Part shown: piece after piece, positions 8,903 through 46,964 of the stretch
How positions within the stretch are numbered: position 1 is the stretch's first letter
Layout: every line of letters begins with the position of its first letter
DNA from: a virus
Taxonomy: Duplodnaviria; Caudoviricetes
Strand: one strand, 5' to 3'
DNA: 64,000 bases
IMG/VR virus record: IMGVR_UViG_3300021400_003144
Position numbers and translations under genes: made by a program
The notes under the pieces: model-generated
Seen by the model: only the letters and a program-made list of their open reading frames with translations
What the model was told of the DNA's origin: nothing
The model's database searches: none

Positions 8903-8929
8903 AGCCATGTCGGATGCGGCATGGTTTTT
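8903..8929 (+). terminator. intrinsic terminator
   Basis: agccatgtcg-gatg-cggcatggtt plus T run. Confidence 0.8.
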
Positions 8930-9020
8930 ATAATGGGTGATAGATTAGACTAGCATTGGGTTAATGTTTTAAGCTAGTTTATATTTATAGATATAAAATT
9001 AAGTTTATTTTTATGCAAGT

Positions 9021-11876
9021 TTGGGGGCTTATAGAACTAATATGGAAACATTTAAAAAAGTTTTAAGGTATGTATGGTTATTCATTAAATACTTTGTGGG
9101 ATCTATCATAGGATGTATAAGTGCTGTGACACAAGTTTTAGGTGGATTTTTGTCTGCTATTGCATTTATGCTAATCATATGCACAGTAGCAGGTAGCATC
9201 TTATATGTAAAGGTAAGACCTATGTTTGAAGAAGCTAGGCAGCAGGCTTATGATAAGTTATCTTCAGTAAATGAAAATTCATTTACTATGAATAGTGATA
9301 CTGAGGTATATGATGCTAATGGCAATCAAATTGGACTAATTAGTGCAGGTCATTATGAGTATGCACCTATTGATACAATTAGTAGCTATGTACAGAATGG
9401 ATATATAGCAGTTGAGGATAAGAGGTTTAAACAGCATATAGGTATTGACTATGTAAGTATAGCAAGAGCATTTGTAAGTCTTGTAAAACATAATGGAGAT
9501 ATAAAGCAGGGTGGTTCTACTATTGACCAGCAGGTAGTTAAAAATACACTTTTAACTCAGGAAAAGACATTTAGTAGAAAGCTTGTAGAAGTAATGATTG
9601 CTCCTTATATTGATAACAGATTTGGCAAGGATAAAGTGATGGAGTTCTATTGTAACACTAATTACTTCGGTCATAGATGTTATGGTATTCAGGCGGCAAG
9701 TAGATATTACTTTGGTAAAGATGCTAAAGACCTTGAAGTTTGGGAGGCAGCTTTACTTTGCAGAATAAGTAACAGTCCAAGTAATTATGACCCAGTTAAA
9801 CATCCTAGAAAAGCTATTGAGGGTAGAAACTATGTTTTAAAAGAGATGTTTGAGGATGGTTATATAGCAGAGAATGTATATAAGAAGGCTATTGAACAGC
9901 CATTGAGTATAGTTCAGGAGTATGCAGAAGGCACTAATGAAAATTATCAAACATCATATGCAATTCATTGTGCAGCACTTGAACTTATGAAGAATGATGG
10001 ATTTGAGTTTAAATATACTTTTAATAATAAAGATAGCTATGAGAAATATAGAGAGGAATACAGTAATAAATATAATGAGAAAACAGAAGAAATAAGAGCA
10101 GGTGGTTACAAGATATATACTACACTTGATAGTAATGTACAGAACTTAGTTCAGAATGACCTTGATAAGGTTTTAGATAAGTTTAGAGATGTTGATGAAA
10201 AGACAGGAAAGTTTACATTACAGGGTGCAGCTGTTGTAGTAGATAATCAATCAAACAATGTTATTGCTATTGTAGGTGGTAGAGGAACAGATGATTTATT
10301 TAATAGGGGTTACTTATCATATAGACAGCCTGGTTCAACAATAAAGCCTTTAATTGATTATGCACCAGCTTTTGATACTGGAGAGTTTAGTCCTTCAAGT
10401 AAAATAAATGATACTGAGATTGAAAATGGTCCTAGCAATTCAGGTGGTGGATATAGAGGTTGGATAACAATTAGAGAAGCATTGAATAGATCAATTAATA
10501 CAGTAGCTTGGCAGTTATTACAGAGTGTAGGTGTTGAGAATGGTATTAGTTATCTTGGAAACATGAACTTCTTAGGTATGTCTTATATTGATACTACAGC
10601 TCCAGCTATTGCAATTGGTGGTTTTACAAATGGAACAAGAGTTGTAGACATGGCTAAGGGATATAGTACATTAGCTAATTATGGAGTATACAATGATAAA
10701 ACTTGTATAAAAGATATTGAGTTTAAGGGTGGCTCAGTATATAAGCAAAAGCCAATTAGCAGAAGAGTTTACAGTGAAGATACAGCTTATATGATTACAG
10801 ATGTTCTTAAAGGAACAATGGATAAGGAGTATGGAACTGGTTATGGACTTGATATAAATGGTCAGCAAGCAGCAGGTAAGACTGGAACAACAAATGATAA
10901 TAAGGATGCTTGGTTCTGTGGATACACTAGATATTATACAACAGCAGTTTGGATGGGTTATGATAATCCTAAGAAAATGACTGGTATCTATGGTGCAACA
11001 TATGCAGGTAAGATTTGGCAGGATATTATGACAGGCTTGCATAGTGAATTACCTGAGTGGGATTGGGAAAGACCTGATACAGTTTATGAAGCTAACTATA
11101 ATGAACAGGGTAAGGAAACTGAAGCTGAGACAGGACTCAGAGATTTGTTTAGTAGTAATGCTAAGAACAGGTTAGATGAGCTAATGAATGAAAGAAGAGA
11201 AAATGCTATTTATGAAGAAGCTGAAAAGAGTGTTGCAGAGTATGAGCATTGGTACATCAATACTGTTGAGGATACAGAGTTAATTGATGAGAAGTACAAT
11301 ACAGCTATAAATGAAGCTTGCAGAGTTGAGGATAATGTAAAGAGAAGTGGTCTTTTAGAGAGAGTAAATAATCATAAGGACGAGATTGATAAGTCTATGA
11401 TATCTTGGAGAGATGCAATAGAGATATTTAACAAGAATAAGGAAGATGAAGAAGAGGCTAGACTTATTAGAGAGTCTGAGGAGGCTGAAGAGAATAGGCA
11501 GAAGATTGAAAAGGAACAGAAGATTGAAAGATTTAAGAACTGTTTAAATAGATTTGCTAATGCTGAGTATCAGGACACAGCTAATTATAGTACTTACATT
11601 GGAGAGGCTAGACAAGCTCTTGATGAATGCAGAGAGTACAATGAGTATGTAGGTTTAAGTGATGAACTTAAGAACGCTATAGAAAGATATAACTCATTAC
11701 CTACATATGATGAATGGTACTTAGAGCAGTCTAGAATTGAAGAGAGTCAGAGAGCTGAGGAAGAAAGACTTAAGGAAGAGGCTGATGAGTCACTTAGACA
11801 GCAGATGATTACAGGTCCTTCAGGTAATTCAGATACTTCAGATACTTATGGTCCTTCAGTTGGAAGTTACGAGTAA
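9021..11876 (+). CDS. ponA: class A penicillin-binding protein (PBP1A-like) with C-terminal coiled-coil extension
   Basis: N-terminal TM; GT51 motifs EDKRF, GGSTIDQQVVKN, RKLVE; transpeptidase STIK, SIN, KTG; start may be ATG 9042. Confidence 0.95.
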   Translation: MGAYRTNMETFKKVLRYVWLFIKYFVGSIIGCISAVTQVLGGFLSAIAFMLIICTVAGSILYVKVRPMFEEARQQAYDKLSSVNENSFTMNSDTEVYDANGNQIGLISAGHYEYAPIDTISSYVQNGYIAVEDKRFKQHIGIDYVSIARAFVSLVKHNGDIKQGGSTIDQQVVKNTLLTQEKTFSRKLVEVMIAPYIDNRFGKDKVMEFYCNTNYFGHRCYGIQAASRYYFGKDAKDLEVWEAALLCRISNSPSNYDPVKHPRKAIEGRNYVLKEMFEDGYIAENVYKKAIEQPLSIVQEYAEGTNENYQTSYAIHCAALELMKNDGFEFKYTFNNKDSYEKYREEYSNKYNEKTEEIRAGGYKIYTTLDSNVQNLVQNDLDKVLDKFRDVDEKTGKFTLQGAAVVVDNQSNNVIAIVGGRGTDDLFNRGYLSYRQPGSTIKPLIDYAPAFDTGEFSPSSKINDTEIENGPSNSGGGYRGWITIREALNRSINTVAWQLLQSVGVENGISYLGNMNFLGMSYIDTTAPAIAIGGFTNGTRVVDMAKGYSTLANYGVYNDKTCIKDIEFKGGSVYKQKPISRRVYSEDTAYMITDVLKGTMDKEYGTGYGLDINGQQAAGKTGTTNDNKDAWFCGYTRYYTTAVWMGYDNPKKMTGIYGATYAGKIWQDIMTGLHSELPEWDWERPDTVYEANYNEQGKETEAETGLRDLFSSNAKNRLDELMNERRENAIYEEAEKSVAEYEHWYINTVEDTELIDEKYNTAINEACRVEDNVKRSGLLERVNNHKDEIDKSMISWRDAIEIFNKNKEDEEEARLIRESEEAEENRQKIEKEQKIERFKNCLNRFANAEYQDTANYSTYIGEARQALDECREYNEYVGLSDELKNAIERYNSLPTYDEWYLEQSRIEESQRAEEERLKEEADESLRQQMITGPSGNSDTSDTYGPSVGSYE

Positions 11877-41923: not shown

Positions 41924-42721
41924 ATGATTACGGAAGTAAGAAACAGGGAATTTAGTAATGGAAAGGTTTATATGCTTAGAACTGAAGATGGGTTTCCATT
42001 GGAAACAACAGATACATTTCTTCCATACTATACTAAGGATTGTATAAATGAACATACAAATGAATTAAAGAGTGATGTACTTGGAACGAGGAAAGACAGA
42101 TGGATGATTGGAGTAAGCTGTATGTCAGGTTGTCCAGTTCATTGTAAGTTCTGTAGTACTGGTAAGTTAAAGAAGTGGAGAAACTTGACAGCTGATGAAA
42201 TTTTTGAGCAAGTAAAATTTATTTTAGATAAAAATAAAGATTACAAGCCTGAAGATGCTAAAGAATTTAAAATTAACTATACACGCATGGGTGAGCCTTT
42301 TCTTAACATTGAAAATGTTAAGAAAGCTATGAAGTTAGTTGATGAGTATGTAGGAGATGGAGTAAGAGTTCATCACTATATAAGTACAGTAGGCATTAAG
42401 GGAAGTGATTTCTCATGGATTAAGGATAACATAACATTACAGCTGAGTTTACATAGTCTTGATGAAGATAGAAGGCATGATTTAATTCCAATAAGTAATT
42501 TAATGAGCATTGAGGAATTGGGTCAGGTCAGAACAGAAAGTAATTTAAAGACTACATTAAATATGACTCTTGTAGATACAGCTGATTTTGATATTAATAA
42601 GCTTACTAAGTATTTTGATAAGGATTATTTCTTTATTAAGCTTAGTCCTATAAATGAGAATGATATAAGCAAAGAAAATAATATGGGTGCTGGAATTATA
42701 AAAGGACAGAATATAATCTAG
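41924..42721 (+). CDS. RlmN/Cfr-like radical SAM enzyme, large subunit lacking the C-terminal ACGQL segment
   Basis: GCPVHCKFCSTG, RNLTADEIFEQV, MGEPFLN, ISTVG, LSLHS; ends at KLSPINEN...QNII. Confidence 0.9.
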   Translation: MITEVRNREFSNGKVYMLRTEDGFPLETTDTFLPYYTKDCINEHTNELKSDVLGTRKDRWMIGVSCMSGCPVHCKFCSTGKLKKWRNLTADEIFEQVKFILDKNKDYKPEDAKEFKINYTRMGEPFLNIENVKKAMKLVDEYVGDGVRVHHYISTVGIKGSDFSWIKDNITLQLSLHSLDEDRRHDLIPISNLMSIEELGQVRTESNLKTTLNMTLVDTADFDINKLTKYFDKDYFFIKLSPINENDISKENNMGAGIIKGQNII

Positions 42722-42744: not shown

Positions 42745-43575
42745 ATGGACAGTAAGTATAATCTAAACGCATTATCTTTTCTTATCGGAAGTTTAAGGGA
42801 TGTGGTTAATAACTTTGGGGCTAATGATAAGTCAGCAGCGTTTTATAGGTCACAGGTTAATAATTTAGTTAATCTTGGACAGTTAAATGAAGTGGATGCT
42901 AATTTGGTTGAGGAACTTGTAGATTTAGACCATCTAAATCATTGGAATAGCAATCAAGTTATGTTAGATAAGTTTACATATTGTATTAACATAGTTCTAT
43001 CAAACGCTTGCCTTAATGGTGATATTATTAAGGCTGACGCTGATAGAATTTTATCATATATAAATAATACTGAAGATACTCAATATATGAGAAAATCAGT
43101 TAAATTAGCACGTAAGGTTCTTGGAGTACCTGAGAATAAAACAGAGAGTAAACCTAACTGGAAATGTAGCACTCAATTTGGTACAAATAAGTTCAGCCAG
43201 AAGGCTATGCAGAATAATAAACCTGTGGCTAAGTCTGTAGATAAGTCTGTAGATAATAAAACTTATAATTTATCAGAAATTAAAAGTGACTTATCTAAAA
43301 GTATAATTAAAGCTGTTAGACCTGGTATGGTATTGGACATAAAGAACATAAATGCAGTATGTAGCAGTGATACTCCATTTTTTAGATACAAATTGCAGGA
43401 TGTAATAAGGGATGAAAAAACAATACTAGAGATAATAACAAAGTTTAAGAATGGATATCCTGTTATGATAGGTGAACTTATAGATGATGGGTGTCATATA
43501 ATAGGTTGTAATAGAAATGAGGAGTATAGCAATATACTTATTGCAAAATTGAATGAGTATGCAAAGTTGATATGA
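42745..43575 (+). CDS. hypothetical protein inside radical SAM cluster
   Basis: AGGAGG RBS; stop overlaps next ATG (ATGA). Confidence 0.8.
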   Translation: MDSKYNLNALSFLIGSLRDVVNNFGANDKSAAFYRSQVNNLVNLGQLNEVDANLVEELVDLDHLNHWNSNQVMLDKFTYCINIVLSNACLNGDIIKADADRILSYINNTEDTQYMRKSVKLARKVLGVPENKTESKPNWKCSTQFGTNKFSQKAMQNNKPVAKSVDKSVDNKTYNLSEIKSDLSKSIIKAVRPGMVLDIKNINAVCSSDTPFFRYKLQDVIRDEKTILEIITKFKNGYPVMIGELIDDGCHIIGCNRNEEYSNILIAKLNEYAKLI

Positions 43576-44429
43576 TACATATAAAAGATATTAGGGTTCA
43601 GACTAAAACATGTCTTAAAAATGGAAAGACTCAACATGATTTAGGTAAGGTTTTACAATTATATGTAGTAACCACTAGAAAGTGTAATGCGAGCTGTGAG
43701 TTTTGTGAGTTTAAGGGTGAAGTTGAGAAAGTAAATCTTGTTAAGTTTAAAGAGACTTTTGAGAAATTAAGTAAATACTTTTATATAAGTGCAGTACATT
43801 TTACTGGTGGTGAACCTTCACTTGAAATTGATACAATAAGAGATATTTGTGATTACATTAAAGAAAAAGATGTATTCATATTTACAAGTGCCAATACAAA
43901 TGGTATTAAGTTGAATGAGCTTAAGGAGATTAAGAATCTTGATAATGTAGCTCTTAGTAGACATGGGTTAAGTCAGAAAGAAAATGAGAATATATTTAAA
44001 ACAAGTAGTATAGCAAATGAGGATGACATAAAGAACTTTCCTAAAAACAAGTTACATCTAAGTTGTAACATGATAAAAGGTTATGTGGACAGTGAAGAAA
44101 AGATATATGACTACTTGGATAAGTATTCTGACTTAGGTGTTTATGATGTAGGTTTTGTAAATCTGATGAAAATAAATGAGTACTGTAAAGAAAAATTTGC
44201 AGAGTTTCCAAAAGAGCTTAGTAAATGTACTCAGACAAAGAGGTTTCAGAATATACAAGATGATATAGAAACTTGCCAGTGTAGAAACTGGTTATATAGT
44301 AATAAGAATTGTAACTTTGTATCCATATATAACAGGCATGTAGTTGGTAAGTCTGACTTAGTTGGAGCATTAATCTATGAAAATAACAAGTTATATGCTG
44401 GTTGGGGTGGAGAAGAGATACAAATATAA
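43572..44429 (+). CDS. radical SAM enzyme (GGEP type)
   Basis: CNASCEFC, HFTGGEP, NTNG, extra C-terminal Cys (TCQCRNW). Confidence 0.9.
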   Translation: MIHIKDIRVQTKTCLKNGKTQHDLGKVLQLYVVTTRKCNASCEFCEFKGEVEKVNLVKFKETFEKLSKYFYISAVHFTGGEPSLEIDTIRDICDYIKEKDVFIFTSANTNGIKLNELKEIKNLDNVALSRHGLSQKENENIFKTSSIANEDDIKNFPKNKLHLSCNMIKGYVDSEEKIYDYLDKYSDLGVYDVGFVNLMKINEYCKEKFAEFPKELSKCTQTKRFQNIQDDIETCQCRNWLYSNKNCNFVSIYNRHVVGKSDLVGALIYENNKLYAGWGGEEIQI

Positions 44430-44461
44430 AAATTAAATAAATTAAAGAAGGAGAAATTAAC

Positions 44462-44590
44462 ATGGATAAGATTATTGAAGCACTTAAAGATGCAGGGTAT
44501 GACTATGGTGTTGCTATTGCTACTCAGGCGGAGATTAAAGCTGGAGCAGCTTGTGGTCAATTAAGTTTAATTGTTGAGAACGAAAAGTAA
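44462..44590 (+). CDS. 42-aa peptide carrying the RlmN/Cfr catalytic AACGQL motif (not in ORF track)
   Basis: AAGGAG at 44448-44453, ATG 44462; MDKIIEALKDAGYDYGVAIATQAEIKAGAACGQLSLIVENEK. Confidence 0.9.
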   Translation: MDKIIEALKDAGYDYGVAIATQAEIKAGAACGQLSLIVENEK

Positions 44591-44681: not shown

Positions 44682-46964
44682 ATGAAACGTGTGGATTTAA
44701 CTGGAAAGACATTTGGAGAATTACTTGTACTTAGATATCTAGGGGATAAAACATATGTATGCAGATGTAGCTGCGGAAAAGAGATTGAGGTAGCAACATA
44801 TAGTCTGACAAGCGGAAAGAAAACTTCATGCGGACATGATAGAGTTAAAACTAATCTCAAGGGTAAAATGATTGGCAACTGGAAAGTTCTTGAGTACAAT
44901 AATGATGGAAGATGGTTGTGTGAGTGTCAGTGTGATAAGCATACAAGAAGATTGCTATATACTAACACACTTACAACTGGGAAGAGTCTGAGCTGTGGTT
45001 GTCAAGTAAAGCATACAGAGTTATTAAAAGATAAACCAGGTGATGTATATGGTGAATGGACATTATTAGAGCCATTACATAATGGAAAGTGGCTATGCAG
45101 ATGCAGTTGTGGAACTGTAAAAGAGGTAAATACAAATCAACTTCATAGTGGACAGAGTAAGAGCTGTGGGCATAGCAGATATGAAGCTAGAGTAGACTAC
45201 AAGGGTAAAAACATAGGTGACTATGGGGTTCTAGAATATATAGGTAATAGGATTTGGAAGTGCAAGTGTTTAAAATGTGGAGAGATTAAAGAAATAAGCC
45301 AAGCAAACTTAAAGGCTGAGGTTGGAACCAGATGTTCTAAAATAACATACAGAGAGAATCTTGTAGGAAAAATGTTTGGAAGATGGCAAGTTCTAGCATA
45401 CAGCGGAGATGGAAAGTGGATTTGTGAGTGCAGTTGTAAAAATCATACAAGAAGAGAGATTGAGACACATGTACTAAAATCTGGAAACAGTAAGAGTTGC
45501 GGATGTTTAATACATGATTTTGCTAGAGAGACACAGCTAAAAGACTTAACAGGTCAGATATTTGGAAACTGGAAAGCTATTGAGTATGCTGGAGACAGAA
45601 AATGGAGATGTGAGAATATTAAAAGTCATGAAATTAGAAACATACAAGGTTATAGCTTAACAAATGGATTAAATAAAGGAACAGCTAACAGGTATTCAGA
45701 CAATATAAATATAGGTGATAAATTTGGTAGATGGACAGTTATAGGTAAAGCTGGAGCAGAGCAATCTTATAAAATAATATGTCAGTGTAGCTGTGATAAA
45801 AAGACAATAAGGCTTATAAATGGTGCTTTCTTAATAAATGGATTGACTAAGAGTTGCGGATGTTTACAGGGTGAGCTTAGAAAGCAAGTACTGATTCAGA
45901 AGTATGGTGAAGTAGCTACTAATAAGGTGAATAAGCCTAGAGAAAAATGGCAGATAGAAGCTTTAAATAGCAAATATAACTTAGAGAACTATATTAATGC
46001 TATTGAAGATAAGACAGTAGTAAATATAGCAAATGGATTGGGTATAACTAGAGCTATCGCTCTTAGATATATACATAAGTATGGATTGGAATCTATTATA
46101 GAGTTCAATACTATGTCATCCTCTTATGAAAAGGAAATTGTAGAATTTATAAGAGGACTTGGAATTACAAATATAGTAACAAATGATAGAACTTTGATTA
46201 ATCCTTATGAAATTGATATATACTTACCGGATTTAAGAATTGGAATTGAGTTTAATGGTACATATTGGCATAGTAATATTTTTAAAAATAAGAAGTATCA
46301 TCAAGCTAAGTCAATATATGCATATCGTAAAACAGTAAAATTAATTCATATATTTGAATATGAATGGAGAACAAACAAGGAAGAAATTAAGGAGTACCTT
46401 AAAACTAAAATATGTGGACCAACTCAGTCAGTCTCTGCACGTAATACATATATTAAGCATGTAGATAGAGATGAAGCTATTGATTTTTTAGAGGAAAATC
46501 ATTTGCAGGGTTATGCTGAGTCATCAATCAATTTAGGTTGTTATTATAATAATGAGTTAATTGGTATAATGACTTTTGGAAAGCCTAGATTCAATAATGA
46601 ATATGAGTATGAAATTATAAGGTCTGCTTGGAAGAAAGGATATGCTGTAACAGGTGGTATAGAGAAATTATTTAAGCATTTTATAACAGAGTATACACCA
46701 AATAATGTAATGAGCTATTGTAATATAGCTAAGTTTGATGGTGGAAGCTATGGTAGATTAGGATTTAAGCTTGTAAGTATAACTGAACCAAACTATGTAT
46801 GGGTTAAAGACAATACTGTACTTTCAAGATACAAGACAACAAAGAAAGACCTATTAGATGCTGGTATTGGTACAGAGGAAGATACTGAAGATAGCATTAT
46901 GGAGAATTTAGGATACCTTAAGGTTTATGATTGTGGCAATTATAAGTTTGTTTGGAATAAATAA
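44682..46964 (+). CDS. Hef-like putative homing endonuclease with 7 Cys-rich repeats, PD-(D/E)XK domain and GNAT-like C-terminus
   Basis: repeats like DLTGKTFGELLV...CRCSCG...SCG; YEIDIYLPDLRIGIEFNGTYWH; FLEENHLQG...YDCG. Confidence 0.8.
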   Translation: MKRVDLTGKTFGELLVLRYLGDKTYVCRCSCGKEIEVATYSLTSGKKTSCGHDRVKTNLKGKMIGNWKVLEYNNDGRWLCECQCDKHTRRLLYTNTLTTGKSLSCGCQVKHTELLKDKPGDVYGEWTLLEPLHNGKWLCRCSCGTVKEVNTNQLHSGQSKSCGHSRYEARVDYKGKNIGDYGVLEYIGNRIWKCKCLKCGEIKEISQANLKAEVGTRCSKITYRENLVGKMFGRWQVLAYSGDGKWICECSCKNHTRREIETHVLKSGNSKSCGCLIHDFARETQLKDLTGQIFGNWKAIEYAGDRKWRCENIKSHEIRNIQGYSLTNGLNKGTANRYSDNINIGDKFGRWTVIGKAGAEQSYKIICQCSCDKKTIRLINGAFLINGLTKSCGCLQGELRKQVLIQKYGEVATNKVNKPREKWQIEALNSKYNLENYINAIEDKTVVNIANGLGITRAIALRYIHKYGLESIIEFNTMSSSYEKEIVEFIRGLGITNIVTNDRTLINPYEIDIYLPDLRIGIEFNGTYWHSNIFKNKKYHQAKSIYAYRKTVKLIHIFEYEWRTNKEEIKEYLKTKICGPTQSVSARNTYIKHVDRDEAIDFLEENHLQGYAESSINLGCYYNNELIGIMTFGKPRFNNEYEYEIIRSAWKKGYAVTGGIEKLFKHFITEYTPNNVMSYCNIAKFDGGSYGRLGFKLVSITEPNYVWVKDNTVLSRYKTTKKDLLDAGIGTEEDTEDSIMENLGYLKVYDCGNYKFVWNK

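Follow-up and report, generated by a model that had tools for sequence, protein, structure and literature searches.

Methylation by way of a protein-bound methylene radical is a textbook reaction, and a clinically important one, of RlmN and Cfr, enzymes in which two cysteines are both held to be indispensable. In RlmN, SAM methylates Cys355, a 5'-deoxyadenosyl radical takes a hydrogen from the methyl group, and the methylene radical then adds to C2 of adenine; Cys118 is needed for resolving the covalent protein-RNA adduct. RlmN (TIGR00048; PDB 3RF9/3RFA, 5HR6/5HR7, 6FZ6) is a dual-specificity C2-methyltransferase that acts on A2503 of 23S rRNA and on A37 of tRNA. When the resolving cysteine is mutated (RlmN C118A, Cfr C105A), the crosslink between protein and RNA is trapped or methylation is lost (PMC9692996; PMC2836569; PDB 5hr6/5hr7), and in current mechanistic work Cys118 is seen chiefly as a general base for removal of the C2 proton.

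The phage locus described here encodes what appears, from its sequence, to be a new variation on this theme, an RlmN/Cfr-type core that differs in its catalytic complement and in its architecture. The window, a stretch of 64,000 nucleotides from a virus of the Caudoviricetes (IMG/VR record IMGVR_UViG_3300021400_003144), comes from a large gut phage: its genes share one orientation and include a helicase and a family A DNA polymerase, and the gene of interest, RS1, is carried on a 282-kb contig. RS1 (41924..42721, plus strand) is an intact ORF of 265 aa, with an RlmN/Cfr-like radical SAM core that corresponds to residues 79–335 of E. coli RlmN. It matches Pfam Radical_SAM (PF04055), and the CxxxCxxC cluster motif (42131..42154, plus strand; Cys70 at 42131–42133, Cys74 at 42143–42145 and Cys77 at 42152–42154) is invariant in the family alignment. 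This motif, in a core fold of the RlmN type, is a feature that RS1 shares with the class A radical SAM methylases RlmN and Cfr. The nearest curated families are RlmN (TIGR00048, E 5.5e-24) and Cfr (TIGR04432), both matched far below their cut-offs (84.8 bits vs 290, and 55.9 bits vs 550, respectively). In the PDB, a HMMER search matches RlmN entries at E about 1e-12. The corresponding PHROG, phrog_24834 (E 2.3e-16), is annotated as of unknown function.

An AF2 model of RS1, computed with 15 diverse homologues as input (pLDDT 88.4), retrieved RlmN structures as all of its best Foldseek matches; the best-matching RlmN structures align with it at Z 21–23, and its residues 1–265 superpose on residues 79–335 of E. 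coli RlmN (3rf9) with a Z of 22.7 and an rmsd of 2.6 Å over 232 aligned residues. As residue 1 of RS1 aligns with residue 79 of RlmN, the protein starts at the extra beta-strands which follow the helical N-terminal domain, and this accessory, RNA-binding domain is missing from the model. Its absence had been proposed in the first-pass annotation of the locus and is confirmed by the superposition; it holds for the family as a whole. Neither RS1 nor the ORF upstream of it has a Pfam match to RlmN_N. Provision of the domain in trans by a neighbouring gene was considered and rejected, as the upstream 330-aa ORF has no Pfam match and only the gene for a short peptide (see below) is conserved nearby. 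At its other end RS1 stops at the equivalent of RlmN residue 335, so that the methyl-carrying cysteine (Cys355 of RlmN) is not part of the same chain.

The resolving cysteine (Cys118 in RlmN, Cys105 in Cfr) is found seven residues ahead of the first cluster cysteine. RS1 has a glycine at this position: within residues 60–77 (WMIGVSCMSGCPVHCKFC), Gly63 (codon gga, 42110–42112, plus strand) is aligned with residue 118 of E. coli RlmN C118A (4pl1) in a gap-free HMMER alignment, and Cys66 (codon tgt, 42119–42121, plus strand), at position -4, is aligned with Ser121. Gly at -7 and Cys at -4, as first read from the interval 42085–42160 inside this ORF, are thus correct, and the glycine is a trait of the family, being present in all 120 of the closest database homologues (at least 71% identity) and in 87 of 88 family members from related loci, the sole exception being a second, two-Cys RlmN-like gene in one locus (L025). 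When the split family, in which the cysteine loop is encoded separately, is represented at 50% identity, no representative has Cys at position -7, which is Gly or, at times, N, H, D, Y or A. The only invariant cysteines of RS1 in the family alignment are the three cluster ligands, and the other RlmN active-site motifs are kept (S65, MGEP, N128, SxH and R184).

It had also been suggested that the cysteine at -4 might substitute as the resolver. We reject this, because the position is variable and because a -4 cysteine also occurs together with the -7 cysteine in canonical RlmN-type proteins, for example in the solved Sphaerobacter enzyme 6fz6 (TVCVSCQVGC). The 120 close homologues have C in 99, V in 12 and T in 9 cases; the 88 loci have T in 65, C in 13 and V in 10; and among the 25 lineages with a single pattern, T is found in 10, C in 8 and V in 7. 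In the phages Kehishuvirus 'tikkala', Moorella MTATph1, Vibrio D479 and Pectobacterium Arno18 the residue is T or V. Cys66 therefore represents a lineage polymorphism rather than a conserved catalytic residue. In the AF2 model it lies just beyond the end of strand 59–64, and neither residue 63 nor residue 66 is among the RS1 residues listed at the interface with the peptide in the complex model. Since the -4 cysteine is not invariant, C, T and V all being found in the aligned homologues, the idea of a permanent peptide-substrate crosslink, raised in the first-pass annotation, survives at the level of sequence.

The missing C-terminal part of RlmN is encoded 1.7 kb downstream. A peptide of 42 aa (44462–44590, plus strand) is homologous to the C-terminal strand and Cys355 loop of RlmN, its single cysteine, Cys31 (codon 44552–44554), being part of the motif AACGQL. 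A ribosome-binding site that can be read from the sequence (AAGGAG, 44448..44453, plus strand) is located 8 nt ahead of the ATG. A search with the peptide returned 406 homologues of 23–74 aa, with the conserved pattern GYDYGVAIAT..AE...AACGQL; the cysteine is invariant save for one AACCQL variant and is the only cysteine in 112 of the 119 homologues scored. Frameshifting or readthrough joining RS1 to the peptide is discarded as an explanation of the arrangement, as the two have separate starts and ribosome-binding sites and their relative frame varies between phages.

When RS1 and the peptide were modelled together with a 4Fe-4S cluster and SAM, the pair reached an ipSAE of 0.82, as opposed to 0.01 for the best control. 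Among solved complexes, 58 of 80 come up to this mark, and among mismatched pairs, 2 of 110. The runs had at least 87% of their contacts in common and the pLDDT of the partner was at least 79. Peptide residues 13–17 pair with the RS1 strand 236–240 in this model, and the Cys loop contacts RS1 residues 76–79 and 120–122. Because the two chains are halves of a fold with solved relatives, this result reflects the likeness to RlmN more than it provides independent proof of binding. That the peptide supplies the last RlmN-type strand and the AACGQ loop to RS1 in trans is strongly supported, and so is the absence from both RS1 and the peptide of any cysteine able to play the role of RlmN Cys118.

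The separation of core and cysteine loop is not restricted to the phage under study. Among named phages searched with tblastn, RS1 followed by a separate AACGQ peptide gene occurs in a crAss-like Bacteroides phage and in phages of Moorella, Vibrio, Pectobacterium and, by tblastn only, Yersinia. In IMG/VR, the scan for RS1 gave 491 contigs, and among the best 80 loci, which were examined, the peptide gene is downstream of RS1 in 78. When all locus ORFs were clustered at 75% identity, 27 RS1 lineages resulted, and every one of them has the peptide gene. We define a two-piece phage RlmN-like family by a core of about 260–290 aa, a residue other than Cys at -7 and a separate gene nearby for an AACGQ peptide of 39–60 aa; the window belongs to this family, and the architecture is common to 27 of 27 lineages. 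A literature search found no description of such a family.

There are some exceptions to the simple two-gene form. A single ORF of Vibrio phage D479 contains two peptide modules in tandem. In P0127, the peptide module is joined to the N-terminus of the core, and P0142 (695 aa) combines in one chain a peptide-like module (AACGN), an RS1-like core and a domain resembling a second radical SAM enzyme of the locus, RS2 (described below); the latter protein is a Rosetta-stone link among peptide, RS1 and RS2. A sub-branch of the split family (P0183, P0187, P0192, P0207 and P0227) combines Gly at -7 with a fused C-terminal strand (GF.YAHRN) that does not include the CGQ loop, which leaves that chain with neither of the two catalytic cysteines. 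Inteins were also observed. The 601-aa protein P0122 has one right after CxxxCxxC, continues thereafter with FVP/LVP and matches models of intein-containing radical SAM proteins, and the fragments P0164, P0172 and P0173 are RS1 homologues with an intein at the same place.

From sequence comparison, the pair seems to keep everything required for the first half-reaction of RlmN and nothing known to serve in the second. Among the explanations considered we favour, tentatively and at somewhat less than even chances, that RS1 and the 42-aa peptide form a two-piece, one-cysteine class A (RlmN/Cfr-type) radical SAM enzyme, with the peptide acting as a stoichiometric, exchangeable co-substrate and a peptide-S-CH2-substrate thioether adduct as the immediate product. 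By analogy to the chemistry of RlmN, Cys31 of the peptide would be S-methylated by SAM, a 5'-deoxyadenosyl radical would remove a hydrogen from the S-methyl group, and the S-CH2 radical would add to an sp2 carbon in a substrate that resembles adenine. Release by the canonical route, which depends on a cysteine, would then be impossible in this pair, and it is for this reason that we read the peptide as a stoichiometric and exchangeable co-substrate. With the tail split from the core, the iron-sulfur core could be reused, and the adduct may be either the final product or an intermediate that is processed later, e.g. by RS2 or by host factors. The tandem peptide modules in D479 are consistent with a reagent that is consumed.

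In a quick maximum-likelihood search with IQ-TREE on 89 representatives, the 39 proteins with a -7 cysteine, every one of which has a fused CGQ tail, group together in a single clade (SH-aLRT 99). In this quick tree the split family forms a group apart from the -7-Cys clade. A third, sister clade of 21 representatives (support 98) has I, N, M, T or V at -7, never Cys, but retains a fused xNCGQ tail in 18 of 21 cases, and hence the loss of the resolving cysteine is not tied to the split; the contigs retrieved for this clade are of about 1 kb. On our reading of the co-substrate, the members of the sister clade, with their fused tail, would be single-turnover enzymes, which speaks against it. The N-terminal fusions in P0127 and P0142 also defeat disposability of the peptide in that sub-lineage.

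The two clades without a -7 cysteine share further residues. Arg121 of RS1 (TRMGEP; codon 42284..42286, plus strand), identified by analysis of group-specific columns, is Arg in both and Gly or Ser in canonical RlmN and Cfr; Gln173 (LQLSLHS; codon 42440..42442, plus strand), found in the same way and located two residues ahead of the serine of SLH, is Gln in these clades and mostly Ala in the canonical enzymes; and both have Phe in place of a Tyr that is 95% conserved in canonical proteins. Their active site thus looks remodelled rather than just damaged, as far as sequence can tell, and Arg121 and Gln173 could support another resolution chemistry. Together, the fused sister clade, the N-terminal fusions and the co-varying Arg121 and Gln173 represent some evidence against a simple logic of a disposable peptide.

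The same observations lend substance to a rather different process, which we consider a serious contender even if clearly short of probable, namely that the pair is a catalytic methylase (forming m2A, m8A or similar) in which the crosslink is resolved without a cysteine, by another base, by water in the space left at Gly63 or by Arg121/Gln173, and in which the peptide is regenerated as a dissociable subunit or methyl shuttle. If Cys118 is mainly a general base, its task could in principle fall to a different base or to water. The retention of the other RlmN active-site motifs, the shared Arg121 and Gln173, which suggest remodelling rather than crippling, and the N-terminal peptide fusions all fit such an enzyme, and a fused tail in a clade without the -7 cysteine would be more economical if the enzyme turns over. 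However, no candidate base was found, Arg and Gln being poor bases, and every experimental removal of the resolving cysteine in RlmN or Cfr has abolished turnover. Catalytic methylation would also offer no reason for the separate gene of the tail in 27 of 27 lineages or for its duplication in D479.

Three further RlmN-like proteins without a -7 cysteine, P0189, P0204 and P0250 (510–528 aa), have a fused CGQL tail and, at their C-terminus, a domain resembling isochorismatases and cysteine hydrolases (matches to biuret amidohydrolase and RutB-like proteins). A yfgB gene attributed to an 'Acinetobacter phage' (hit H29) was set aside, as its neighbourhood is that of an ordinary bacterial rlmN and not of a phage.

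Between RS1 and the peptide gene the window has two more genes, X and RS2. X (42745..43575, plus strand) encodes a 276-aa protein with no match in Pfam, NCBIfam or PHROG, and its stop codon overlaps the start of RS2 (43572..44429, plus strand), which encodes a second radical SAM enzyme of 285 aa (PF04055). RS2 is MoaA/viperin-like, with matches to MoaA (1.7e-13) and viperin (3.7e-9) that are all below cut-off and viperin-like matches in the PDB at 1.6e-6. The order RS1 ... X - RS2 - peptide is repeated in close relatives, relatives of X precede RS2 in three other loci (L006, L008 and L009), and RS2 is near RS1 in 11 of 27 lineages. In a crAss-like clade, a different radical SAM gene and a small class I methyltransferase are found between RS1 and the peptide. 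RS2 and X were rejected as obligatory parts of the system, as they are absent from four complete phage genomes that carry RS1 and the peptide, and the minimal unit is thus RS1 plus peptide.

Proteins encoded ahead of RS2 (in the window at 42745–43575, and at L008:7548–8339 and L020:6738–6986) have a common N-terminal helical segment, and in several loci they end in Cys-containing tails, e.g. ...FFRSNC or ...SSNGRC. These are hints in the sequences that RS2 may have a small-protein substrate of its own. In a relative of the phage under study, the X homologue (L006:7756–8712) has 6 in-frame TAG codons and ends with TAA, and the RS2 homologue has internal stops when translated with table 11 while the RS1 and peptide genes have none, which suggests TAG recoding in that phage; the genes of the window read cleanly under table 11. 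Directly after the peptide gene, a protein of 760 aa (44682–46964, plus strand) contains repeats of a CxC...C(G) module. Its C-terminal half has matches among the PHROGs of phage homing/HNH endonucleases (phrog_3339, 1.3e-88) and weak ones to REase_MTES_1575 and Mom-like/GNAT models, and the protein is probably a mobile endonuclease.

Clusters of this kind recall ribosomally synthesised peptides, and the peptide might be the end product or scaffold of a RiPP-like pathway, in which RS1, aided where they occur by RS2 and X or by the small methyltransferase, modifies Cys31 or assembles a small molecule on this residue. A short and highly conserved peptide accompanied by one or two radical SAM enzymes does resemble a RiPP cluster, the second radical SAM gene (of the window type in 11 lineages, of the crAss type in 3) is near RS1 and the peptide gene and mostly between them, small Cys-terminated proteins precede RS2 in some loci, and D479 has tandem peptide modules. 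We consider such a pathway unlikely, because in structural terms the peptide clearly corresponds to the tail of RlmN, adding a strand to the core in the complex model, because it has no leader/core organisation, and because RS2 and X are missing from the four complete genomes mentioned above.

In the census of 27 lineages, the only other recurrent neighbours of RS1 and the peptide are genes of NAD salvage, a NAMPT (PF18127 + PF04095) and an NMNAT/Nudix protein, each of which is beside the pair in 8 lineages, in several gene orders. Three lineages (L024, L029 and L077) have NMNAT, NAMPT, RS1 and peptide as contiguous genes. Enzymes of these families, NAMPT and NMNAT, make up the NARP2 pathway by which phages reconstitute NAD+, and genes of the NARP2 type are reported in about 1.1% of phages (preprint, 10.1101/2024.02.11.579819). 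NAD-salvage genes are not found in the window and are absent beside RS1 in 19 of 27 lineages; in D479 and Arno18 a NAMPT-family protein is encoded elsewhere in the genome. In Vibrio phage 166E36-1 it is a two-Cys form of the RlmN-like protein that adjoins NAMPT. One locus (L025:1787–10768) contains NMNAT/Nudix, NAMPT, split RS1 and peptide as well as the second, short two-Cys RlmN-like gene (8928–9773), and the ORF just after the latter resembles an ADP-ribosylglycohydrolase, a likeness seen by eye only.

The absence of the N-terminal domain, the NAD-salvage neighbourhoods and, weakly, the acidity of the pair in the window point away from RNA recognition in the manner of RlmN and towards an adenine nucleotide. 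The net charge is -4 for RS1 and -3.5 for the peptide compared to a median of +6 for canonical RlmN, a difference that applies to the pair in the window. The target is probably not an rRNA or tRNA recognised in the RlmN style; going by gene neighbourhood, the best lead would be an adenine nucleotide connected with NAD metabolism. An ordinary methylase of rRNA A2503 or tRNA A37, with both the resolving thiol and the RNA-binding domain coming from a host or phage partner, would agree with RlmN and Cfr being the nearest characterised relatives and with the location of some relatives near phage tRNA clusters (the split type in Arno18, the two-Cys type in Stenotrophomonas phage ANB28). It is nonetheless very improbable, given that RS1 has no N-terminal domain, that no upstream partner gene is conserved (the peptide alone is universal, and the 330-aa ORF is without a Pfam match), that there are no tRNA genes in the window and that its RS1 and peptide are acidic.

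Taken one step further, the reading of the peptide as a co-substrate leads to a natural peptide-tagging radical SAM system, a more speculative and on balance doubtful proposal, where a reusable core spends one peptide per reaction and leaves a stable peptide-S-CH2-adenine thioether on an NAD-linked adenine nucleotide or signalling molecule, or on a specific site in a nucleic acid, for host takeover or counter-defence. If this were true, an intermediate that is normally resolved by RlmN and Cfr would for the first time be the product of a natural enzyme. The placement in NAD-salvage operons suggests an undescribed step in the handling of adenine nucleotides by phages under NAD-depleting immunity. 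Irrespective of the target, this is a large and conserved phage family in which one cysteine is gone, the other is on a separate peptide and the RNA-binding domain has been dropped, and so either a Cys-independent resolution of the crosslink exists or the 'trapped' crosslink is used as a product, either of which would extend radical SAM enzymology. The pair is present in phages that can be cultured (Kehishuvirus 'tikkala', Pectobacterium Arno18, Yersinia P778, Vibrio D479 and Moorella MTATph1), which makes the question directly testable.

Of the described systems, NARP2 (Nampt + Nmnat) is related to the pair by gene neighbourhood only, both of its gene families flanking RS1 and the peptide in 8 of 27 lineages; as described, it needs no radical SAM enzyme, and the window has no NARP2 genes. 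Short two-Cys RlmN-like proteins from phages (Salmonella Arash gp133, Stenotrophomonas ANB28 and Vibrio 166E36-1) are also phage-encoded and devoid of the N-terminal domain, but they differ from RS1 in having a -7 cysteine and a fused GGGCGQLW tail, and they belong to the canonical -7-Cys clade. Cfr, the C8-methyltransferase of A2503 in 23S rRNA (9P0P), has the same class A radical SAM methylase fold (Z 16.5), whereas it possesses both cysteines and the N-terminal domain, and RS1 has neither the resolving cysteine nor the domain; nothing indicates that the phage protein confers antibiotic resistance.

The closest likeness is to RlmN itself, with which the phage pair shares the radical SAM core fold, the motifs CxxxCxxC, MGEP, STxG and SLH, the extra N-terminal beta-strands and, on the peptide, an AACGQL loop homologous to that of Cys355. 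It differs from RlmN in that residues 1–78, the helical N-terminal domain, are missing, in that the Cys355 loop is on the separate 42-aa gene product, and in that RS1 has Gly for Cys118, Arg for Gly176 and Gln for the Ala before SLH. In its catalytic complement the pair resembles the mutants E. coli RlmN C118A and Cfr C105A (4PL1, 5HR6/5HR7), in which the resolving cysteine is absent and the methyl-carrying cysteine present, and which stall as a covalent Cys355-CH2-adenine protein-RNA crosslink, the state that would be expected for the phage enzyme. These mutants, however, are artificial and represent a dead end, while the phage proteins are natural, occur in many lineages, and combine co-varying sites with a detachable Cys loop.
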